From NCBI GenBank assembly GCA_004022145.1, contig RCNU01000001.1: a stretch of 64,000 nt of DNA; one strand, 5' to 3'. Origin of the DNA: Paecilomyces variotii (Eukaryota). Positions 27,532 to 28,750 of the stretch are shown here, in pieces. The number at the start of each line of letters is the position of its first letter. The first letter of the stretch is position 1. The position numbers and the translations under genes are program-made. The notes beneath the pieces were generated by a model. It worked only from the letters and a program-made list of their open reading frames with translations, made no database searches and was not told where the DNA came from.

Positions 27532-28750
27532 ATGGGCCGTGGACCGTAAGTGAATCCATTGAATTACATTCACATCGCAGATTGTCTCTCAGCAGATCCT
27601 CTCTCGACAGAGGCTCTGTTCTTTCGTCGCTGCGACCATCGTGATCATGGATTGGAACATCGAAACTGATGAGTTTTGCTATACAGAAAGAAGCACCAGA
27701 AGCGCCTTAGTGCGCCCTCGCACTGGCTCCTGGACAAAATGTCCGGAACCTATGCTCCCAAGGCCTCTCCTGGTCCTCACAAGCTCCGGGACTGCCTGCC
27801 TCTGATCGTCTTCATCCGTAACCGGTACGACATGCCAATTTACATACAGCGAATTCGGTCGAGGGATCGGGGAACTGACAAGATATCTTCTTCTGTAGCC
27901 TGAAGTACGCTCTTAACGGCCGCGAGGTTACCGCCATCCTGATGCAGCGTCTCGTCAAGGTCGACGGCAAGGTCCGCACTGACTCGACCTACCCTGCCGG
28001 TTTCATGGACGTCATCACCATCGAGAAGACCGGCGAGCACTTCCGTCTCGTCTACGACACCAAGGGCCGTTTCACCGTCCACCGTATCCAGGCTGAGGAG
28101 GCTGAGTACAAGCTGGGCCGCGTCAAGCGCGTTCAGCTCGGCAAGGGCGGGATCCCATTCTTGGTTACGCACGATGCGAGAACGTGAGTTTATGCTCTCC
28201 ACAAGTTCCGCGTCATTCAGTCGTTGGACCAAGCTTTGGTTGATCGGCGGAGGACGAGGAATTCCTTTCCTACTGGAGACAGTAAGATCGCATTGTGCGT
28301 GGACATTTTTGTGCTGACAGTTGCTTTCTACAGCATCCGCTACCCCGACCCCTCCATCCGTGTCAACGACACCGTGAAGATCGACCTTGCCACCGGCAAG
28401 ATCACCGACTTCGTTCGCTTCGACACTGGTGTTGTCGTTATGGTCACTGGTGGTCGTAACATGGGTCGTGTTGGTGTCATCACCCACCGTGAGCGTCACG
28501 ATGGTGGTTTCAACATCGTCCACATCAAGGATGCCATTGACAACACCTTCGCCACTCGTGAGTCCAACGTCTTCGTCATTGGACGCGAGAAGCCCTGGAT
28601 CTCTCTGCCCAAGGGCAAGGGTGTCAAGGTATGTTTTTTATGCCCACCACAGAGTATTGGAGTCTTGGGCAAGAGGCTAACATTATCCCACAGCTCTCCA
28701 TCGCTGAGGAGCGTGACCGCCGCCGTGCTTACGCTATTGCTGGCCAGTAA
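27532..28750 (+). CDS. RPS4: 40S ribosomal protein S4 (eS4); introns 27546-27686, 27825-27898, 28184-28333, 28629-28693
   Basis: Spliced translation [22 protein letters not shown]...HDARTIRYPDP...GGRNMGRVG...[18 protein letters not shown]. Confidence 0.98.

Follow-up and report, generated by a model that had tools for sequence, protein, structure and literature searches.

A conserved exon–intron element at the intron 3 donor of the Paecilomyces variotii RPS4 gene as a candidate for splicing control

Known splicing-control structures and the RPS4 gene

To our knowledge, feedback through the own pre-mRNA is known for a handful of ribosomal proteins of yeasts and animals, with few cases in filamentous fungi and none for eS4. 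In RPL30 and RPS14B, a pre-mRNA structure that blocks splicing is the proposed binding site of the encoded protein. In the fungal TPP riboswitch, an alternative pairing hides or frees one of two competing donors, which leads to an unproductive mRNA, and RPS17B is an example of the zipper stems of yeast. The available sections of two papers (PMC5640933, PMC12311795) describe RPL30, RPS14B, RPS9, RPL22B, and RPL7B as autoregulated at the level of splicing via pre-mRNA structures. For RPL7B, the accessible part of the latter source (PMC12311795) reports that binding of the protein to a conserved structure excludes a zipper-stem splicing enhancer, and for the fungal TPP riboswitch of NMT1-type genes, the structured RNA is placed between two 5' splice sites in the accessible part of PMC3597705. 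No paper on RPS4/eS4 autoregulation or on a conserved RPS4 intron element was found in the literature within reach, outside of which lay subscription journals and bioRxiv supplements; the lone match to "RPS4" in the available text of PMC12311795 proved to be "RPS41B." Likewise, the sections at hand of genome-wide fungal screens that included introns mention no RPS4 element. As far as those sections describe them, the screens relied on covariation or clustering, and the RPS4 element offers little of either. An earlier note on this DNA had stated that such regulation was not known to be described for fungal RPS4, and the literature within reach together with Rfam 15, which yield no description, agree with it.

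The window analyzed here is a stretch of 64,000 nucleotides of P. variotii DNA. It carries on the + strand a gene for eS4 (RPS4), which was recognized with Pfam by the RS4NT, S4, Ribosomal_S4e, KOW, and 40S_S4_C domains in exons 2-4; all five domains score above their cut-offs in the translated exons. The gene model was fixed by RNA contigs and comprises, all on the + strand, exon 1 (27532-27545), intron 1 (27546-27686), exon 2 (27687-27824), intron 2 (27825-27898), exon 3 (27899-28183), intron 3 (28184-28333), exon 4 (28334-28628), intron 4 (28629-28693), and exon 5, which ends at the TAA at 28748-28750. Intron 1, of 141 nt, interrupts codon 5, which we take to be approximately the position of the single intron in yeast RPS4 genes. 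The 150-nt length given to intron 3 in the earlier note is borne out by the joint 28183>28334 (150 nt skipped, GT..AG) in an RNA contig of run X7, which also marks GTGAGT (28184-28189, + strand) as the first, productive donor. The branch point CTGAC (28314-28318) and the acceptor CAG (28331-28333), both on the + strand and read from the sequence and the X7 joint, are common to this donor and to the second one discussed below.

The RNA contigs differ in the introns that they keep. In X7, all four introns are removed and none is kept; in X6, introns 1, 2, and 4 are removed and intron 3 is kept; in X5, introns 1 and 4 are removed and introns 2 and 3 are kept; and in X1, intron 4 is removed and introns 1, 2, and 3 are kept. 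Runs X6 and X5 come from one study and are labeled as RNA only by guess, and X1 is represented by an 8.2-kb metatranscriptome contig that is unreadable as one transcript and may mix DNA and RNA. The X6 and X5 contigs, from which other introns have been removed, give only a hint of intron 3 retention, and the examination of runs as assembled contigs makes levels and rare forms invisible.

Pairing between the end of exon 3 and a conserved intron core

Relatives of the junction were fetched from metagenome contigs with 98 residues of exon 4. This search matched 567 stretches, of which 330 were confirmed, and the best 80 of the 330 (L001-L080) were kept; six of these loci are cDNA-like, one is without the upstream exon, and the other 73 hold the junction. 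Judging from an exon 3 identity of 82-95%, the relatives are probably Pezizomycotina. Within the best 80 of 330, the intron lies at an identical codon phase in the 73 loci (72 parsed) and is 71-274 nt long. All 66 fully parsed loci of this set have intron 3, whereas 35 of 66 are without intron 2 and 17 of 65 parsed loci without intron 4. The loss of the neighbors but not of intron 3 would fit a selective retention of the element-bearing intron. Intron 1 is also absent from some long genomic contigs, e.g., L011.

The part of intron 3 that is near-invariant in the relatives is a core at 28210-28240 (+ strand), composed of GCGUC (28210-28214), an unpaired UCAG (28217-28220), CGU (28222-28224), GACCAAG (28227-28233), and UGG (28237-28239). 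It was found in all 53 unique introns of the best 80 of 330 loci, with at most three mismatches in 19 positions, and its alignment contains 15 invariant and four nearly invariant columns (T..TCAG.CGTTGG..CAA..TTTGG). Outside the core, the intron sequence does not align among relatives. When 47 unique loci were compared in 1081 pairs, identity amounted to 88.4% in the 23-nt core and to 49.8% at the four-fold sites of the flanking exons. Intron 3 carries a gene-specific RNA element under strong selection, as would be expected of a feedback device of a ribosomal-protein gene.

In the last ~30 nt of exon 3, the synonymous positions are likewise fixed, on codons seldom used in the rest of exons 3-4. 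Among 55 unique coding sequences, the codons at the end of exon 3 were compared with those in the rest of exons 3-4. Leu is encoded by TTG in 53/55 (13% elsewhere), Thr by ACG in 54/55 (11%), Asp by GAT in 52/55 (33%), Pro by CCA in 51/54 (41%), His by CAT in 36/55 (18%), and Gly by GGA in 32/55 (10%), and the Ala codon GCC, used at 48% elsewhere, occurs in 3/55. Short introns (71-90 nt) keep the core and the frozen exon codons as strictly as the others. A covariance model of the exon-core element, R1, which matches 28154-28242, has one match in the 64-kb window and one in each of the 73 junction-holding loci from the best 80 of 330; none of the six cDNA-like loci is matched. The R1 matches in 73/73 loci, the core identity, and the frozen codons all indicate an element that is conserved beyond the neutral expectation. 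The outlier is L078 (1390-1464), whose exon has AAT, GTG, and ACA instead of CCA, GTY, and ACG and whose upper intron strand is degenerate. L078 also has the lowest R1 score, 58 bits, and the element may be decaying in this lineage.

The frozen exon text is complementary to the intron core. The two form the strands of a long irregular stem-loop, referred to here as S, in which the 5' strand is made up of the last 29 nt of exon 3 (28155-28183, + strand) and the 3' strand of the core. The exon segments are CCA (28155-28157), (U)CUUGGUU (28159-28166), ACG (28167-28169), a CAC loop (28170-28172), GAUGC (28173-28177), and GAAC (28180-28183). In the predicted structure, CCA pairs with UGG, (U)CUUGGUU with GACCAAG(N), ACG with CGU, GAUGC with GCAUC, and the exon Arg codon plus AC with intron positions +5..+10, and the invariant UCAG remains unpaired in an internal loop. 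The 5' splice site lies at the tip of S, where donor positions +1..+4 (GURA) make a GNRA-type tetraloop closed by C-1:G+5 and A-2:U+6; these pairs, 30:35 and 29:36 of the alignment, hold in 43-46 of 44-46 distinct rows. RPS4 is therefore a gene with a predicted pre-mRNA structure that incorporates, and would occlude, a splice signal.

Several measurements argue for this pairing. In the 53-sequence alignment, 89.4-89.6% of the cells of the 23 proposed pairs are paired, compared with 24-48% when the partners are slid, and an alignment fitted to R1 gives the same result. Changes on both sides of a pair occur in 15-16 cells, compared with 6.0-6.5 (6.0±1.9) in shuffles, none of which reaches the observed value in 500; the covariation score of 0.108 also exceeds that of the shuffles (0.089±0.003, 0/500). 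The compensatory changes include CCA>CCC with UGG>GGG in L026 and L006, GAU>GAC with A>G in L059 and L011, and AGA>AGG with U>C in six rows. The both-side changes fall in just four of the 23 pairs, in sequences that are related, and are few because most of S is invariant; the invariance of the core and its escape from covariation screens follow from one strand being protein-coding. Moreover, the Arg codon pairs with its own intron positions +7..+10 at -3.57 kcal/mol and at -1.50 kcal/mol across codons, with none of 2000 permutations as low. RNAfold recovers the architecture of S independently in most lineages. If the folded segment starts at exon position -33 and stops with the core, so that the downstream strand is omitted, 10 of 11 lineages have S as their minimum-energy fold, the exception being L025. 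The window segment 28151-28245 folds into S at -29.5 kcal/mol (z -2.39), and the single-sequence z-scores are modest, ranging from -0.8 to -2.95, with +0.44 in L005. It is thus shown that the element is conserved, that its exon codons are frozen, and that its two strands are complementary, with compensatory changes. The covariation analysis across relatives that the earlier note had suggested thus reveals a conserved structured element, but the conserved pairs join the end of exon 3 to the 5' strand of the hairpin that the note had described, and they enclose the first donor.

Other pairings of the core were tried and rejected. A mini-hairpin inside it, ACCAA/UUGGU, is 92% paired yet without covariation; a 12-bp fold inside the core fits only the L025 clade (72% paired); and a pairing of UCAG with the branch point CUGA is not maintained, many relatives having CUAAC. 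In L025, L049, L059, L011, L022, and their relatives, all with short introns, three linked core changes (N>A, G>U, N>G) give rise to a local hairpin of 14 perfect base pairs, UCAAUCAGACGUUG/CAAUGUUUGGUUGG. It is a competitor of the exon-core stem and a solution unlike that of the long hairpins.

The intron hairpin, its predicted competition with S, and the second donor

The ~84-nt hairpin that had been pointed out at 28196-28279 is reproduced with every listed stem by RNAfold of 28190-28285. Its stems are TCTCCA/TGGAGA, AGTTCC/GGAATT, CGTC/GACG, TTC/GAG, GTCG/CGGC, and GACCAA/TTGGTT, and its energy is -33.3 kcal/mol (z -2.52), with 5/200 shuffles as good. Whole intron 3 folds at -47.1 kcal/mol with a z of -1.80 and 9/200 shuffles as good; therefore, energy alone is just moderately beyond chance. 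In this predicted fold, termed conformer A (28196-28279, + strand), the 5' strand (28204-28233) is the core, whose extent (28210-28240) matches the apex and 5' strand of the hairpin, and the 3' strand (28234-28263) resembles the exon 3 strand, with which it is predicted to compete. Since its 5' strand is the core, A cannot coexist with S, and in the predicted folds, the hairpin is a lineage-specific, mutually exclusive alternative to S. As a conserved unit, the hairpin is not borne out: its sequence is common to the nearest relative L002 and partly to L039, the 3' strand is kept only there, and no compensatory change is found in it. The predicted hairpin, which is kept in the whole-intron fold, would shorten the distance from donor to branch point in the manner of a zipper stem, and when it is looped out, 66 nt are left, an ordinary fungal intron length. 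A search of Rfam 15 gave no match inside intron 3 at E up to 10, and two weak matches outside it are far below the gathering score.

The predicted balance between the conformers varies among lineages. For the whole intron of the window, S when forced has -54.5 kcal/mol and A with a free exon -56.6 kcal/mol, and in L002, the two folds are equal in energy. Short introns usually favor S by 2-8 kcal/mol, and in the L005 clade, A is favored by 8-19 kcal/mol, so that S may rarely form there. S and A as conformers, together with their energies, are predictions. Pairing of the core with downstream sequence has a median z of -2.0 in long introns (n=22) compared with 0 in short introns and is beyond chance in the L005 clade, L033, L037, and L008; in the window, this duplex is within chance (z -1.2, 27/200 shuffles). 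When the exon from -34 and the whole intron are folded together, the minimum-energy fold (-63.3 kcal/mol) is dominated by a 13-bp helix between exon positions 28167-28179 and UCGCAUUGUGCGU (28288-28300, + strand), the complement with one G-U pair that lies just after the second donor. This helix is absent from L002 and may be a species-specific zipper bringing exon 3 near the branch point or an inverted duplication.

The second, unproductive donor GTAAGA (28282-28287, + strand), which the earlier note had located 52 nt from the shared acceptor, is confirmed in the sequence, as is the immediate stop in the text retained after exon 3, AC/G TGA. The donors GTGAGT at 28184 and GTAAGA at 28282 share one acceptor, and the use of the latter would lead to a premature stop. 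A small predicted hairpin, UACUG-GAGA-CAGUA (28271-28284), can hold the second donor, burying its G, U, and A. Its loop is of the GNRA type, and it would form at the expense of the outer stem of the 28196-28279 hairpin. In the relatives, donors were scored as loose (GTRAGN or GTATGT) or strict (GTAAGT/GTGAGT). A loose second donor is found 41-55 nt from the acceptor in seven of 22 long introns, including that of the closest relative, L002, and in none of 31 short ones. The seven compare with 1.45 expected, and none of 500 shuffles reaches seven, in a distance window that was picked after the data had been seen. These donors occur in several lineages with different hexamers, and strict hexamers, present in 3/22 long introns, are not significant (24/300). 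The internal donor is missing from 15/22 long and 31/31 short introns. Accessibility predictions for these donors are mixed. In four of the seven (L016, L060, L026, L075), the donor would be more open under S than under A, as expected of a reciprocal switch; in the window, no opening under S is predicted (0.14 vs 0.30). The joint 28281>28334 was seen in none of the contigs of X1, X5, X6, and X7, which are Logan contigs with rare variants dropped, so that its absence is not shown. A stwintron was considered and rejected: removal of 28184-28282 (GT..AG) leaves AC+TAAGA without a donor, and there is no G/GT at the first donor.

Proposed mechanism and comparison with known systems

On balance, we lean toward the reading that the hairpin belongs to a conserved cis-acting splicing-control element across the exon 3/intron 3 junction, with probable eS4 feedback. 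The near-invariant core and the final ~30 nt of exon 3 would form S with the donor at its tip, and S would hinder donor recognition, so that intron 3 would be spliced slowly or retained; translation of the retained RNA would end immediately (ACG UGA/UAA). S would be bound at the UCAG loop and stabilized by a factor acting in trans, for which free eS4 is the most plausible candidate, and the result would be negative feedback. In the lineage of the window and some others, the intron would have acquired a strand farther downstream as an alternative partner of the core, giving conformer A, and because A is nearly isoenergetic with S in the window, a switch between them is conceivable. The second donor would be an optional, lineage-specific extra through which blocked transcripts are spliced unproductively. 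In this scheme, we infer by analogy the repression, the identity of the factor as eS4, and the involvement of NMD. A more far-reaching version, which we put forward only tentatively, is a two-state switch at a coding junction, kept across a large group of filamentous ascomycetes, in which eS4 would lock S, the downstream exon-mimic strand would free the donor, and several lineages would independently have added a decoy donor that makes the transcript an NMD target. In that case, RPS4 would present the first eS4 feedback loop, an attenuator-like device partly written in codon choice.

The gene's own product, eS4, would be the most likely reader of S because of the analogy with RPL30, RPS14B, RPS9, RPL22B, and RPL7B. 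In the ribosome, the available part of PMC12825303 locates eS4 at the 5' apical subdomain of 18S rRNA, in the area of bacterial bS16. The comparison of the element with 18S rRNA by blastn-short gave no likeness (best E 0.46), and R1 on 20 eukaryotic 18S records reached at best 10.5 bits (E 1.5); three-dimensional mimicry could escape either search. With both the BLAST and the R1 results negative, rRNA mimicry, which is common in such systems, is unsupported. The 18S records were contaminants of prokaryote assemblies; more than 53 prokaryote genome records (L081-L133, isolates and MAGs) contain eukaryotic 18S rDNA as assembly contamination. The h22-h23 words GCAUCA, AUUCUUGG, and CCAAGG that 18S shares with the element were rejected as a sign of likeness, being at chance level by BLAST and not collinear. 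In the 18S of L096 and L133 (~860-1000), helices 22-23 hold GCAUCAGUAUUCA, AUUCUUGG, and CCAAGG, in an order different from that of the RPS4 element.

The model of the earlier note, in which free eS4 binds the hairpin at 28196-28279 and shifts splicing from donor 28184 to donor 28282, with 98 nt retained and NMD as the outcome, now appears distinctly unlikely. The hairpin and the second donor are real, second donors recur in several lineages above expectation (7/22 long introns vs 1.45), and in L016, L060, L026, and L075 they are predicted to be more open under S. However, the core is kept in all relatives, whereas the second donor is missing from 15/22 long and 31/31 short introns, and the 3' strand of the hairpin is kept only in the near relatives L002 and L039, without compensatory change. 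In the window itself, the core-to-downstream duplex is within chance and the second donor is not predicted to be open in S, and the enrichment of second donors is weakened by the non-significant count of strict hexamers (3/22) and by the post hoc choice of the distance window. A constitutive structural aid without feedback is unlikely. Here, the structures would serve the good splicing of an awkward intron: the hairpin and the 13-bp helix would loop out length as yeast zippers do, and the exon-core stem would present or protect the donor; the ordinary 66 nt left after looping out 28196-28279, the downstream pairing of the core in long introns of several lineages (median z -2.0), and the efficient full splicing in X7 agree with this explanation. 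Zipper stems are also common in yeast introns and enhance splicing, according to the accessible part of PMC12311795. However, introns of 71-90 nt need no shortening and yet keep the core and the frozen codons, and a pure spacer role leaves the invariant unpaired UCAG unexplained. The 5' splice site is recognized through base-pairing of the donor with U1, and this pairing would be expected to be hindered rather than assisted if G+5/U+6 and the final bases of the exon are hidden in a stem.

The same element may instead respond to another input, which we consider quite unlikely. S could be read by a neighboring ribosomal protein or by an assembly or splicing factor, or the balance of S and A could sense temperature or transcription speed. 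Nothing in the data names eS4, no 18S likeness was found, and S would form first during transcription whereas A needs a later strand, which makes the outcome sensitive to kinetics. On the other hand, within the DNA examined, the element is found only in RPS4 (one match in the 64-kb window, one per locus), and the comparable cases RPL30, RPS14B, RPS9, RPL22B, and RPL7B are regulated by their own product, as stated in the available sections of PMC5640933 and PMC12311795. That the hairpin arose in a long intron by chance, or that it hosts a small RNA (snoRNA or microRNA-like), is extremely improbable. The energy z-scores of the hairpin are modest, as a chance origin would have it, but conservation and the freezing of exon codons rule such an origin out; a small-RNA host is opposed by Rfam, which matches nothing within the intron up to an E of 10, by the absence of C/D or H/ACA boxes on reading the sequence, and by the 71-90-nt introns, which carry the core and leave no room for a small RNA gene.

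The element shows that an intron partner can dictate the codons used at an exon end, which is relevant to recoding, to the heterologous expression of fungal genes, and to measures of selection on synonymous sites. The element would also account for the keeping of intron 3 while neighboring introns get lost, and it serves as a warning that covariation-based screens miss elements with one protein-coding strand. Moreover, it is readily testable as a 95-nt RNA, with synonymous and compensatory mutations and an invariant loop.

Summarizing, the RPS4 element likely joins the class of ribosomal-protein pre-mRNA regulatory structures, with a function that is predicted. It resembles those of yeast RPL30 (L32) and RPS14B, where exonic and intronic sequences of the pre-mRNA fold up around the 5' splice site. 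The available section of PMC5640933 describes L32, and that of PMC12311795 lists such cases. These structures of Saccharomycetes act close to the start codon, at the first exon/intron, whereas the RPS4 element is positioned at an internal coding junction; because it lies inside the coding region, its 5' strand encodes protein and is held constant by the choice of codons. For RPL30 and RPS14B, both binding and rRNA mimicry have been shown, whereas the RPS4 element is known from sequence and mimicry was not found. The fungal TPP riboswitch is a filamentous-fungal precedent for structure-controlled donor choice, but it senses a ligand and has a defined aptamer family in Rfam, whereas the RPS4 element is without an Rfam match, and its second donor is present in only 7/22 long introns and was not seen in use in the contigs. 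RPS9 and RPL22 are alike in that ribosomal-protein feedback operates via intron structures and alternative splice sites, according to the accessible parts of PMC3315480 and PMC5755908, and they differ in that other proteins and other structures are involved. Like yeast zipper stems, described in the available part of PMC12350175, the hairpin and the 13-bp helix would bring the donor closer to the branch point. Zipper stems, however, are without sequence conservation or frozen codons, whereas the RPS4 core is kept even in short introns. In yeast RPL7B, two mutually exclusive intron structures, one conserved and one shortening, set splicing by their balance, which is the arrangement also predicted here; the conserved structure of RPL7B is intron-internal and its zipper an enhancer, as far as the accessible part of PMC12311795 describes them. 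In RPS4, in contrast, the conserved structure takes in the exon and the donor, and the competing hairpin is lineage-specific.
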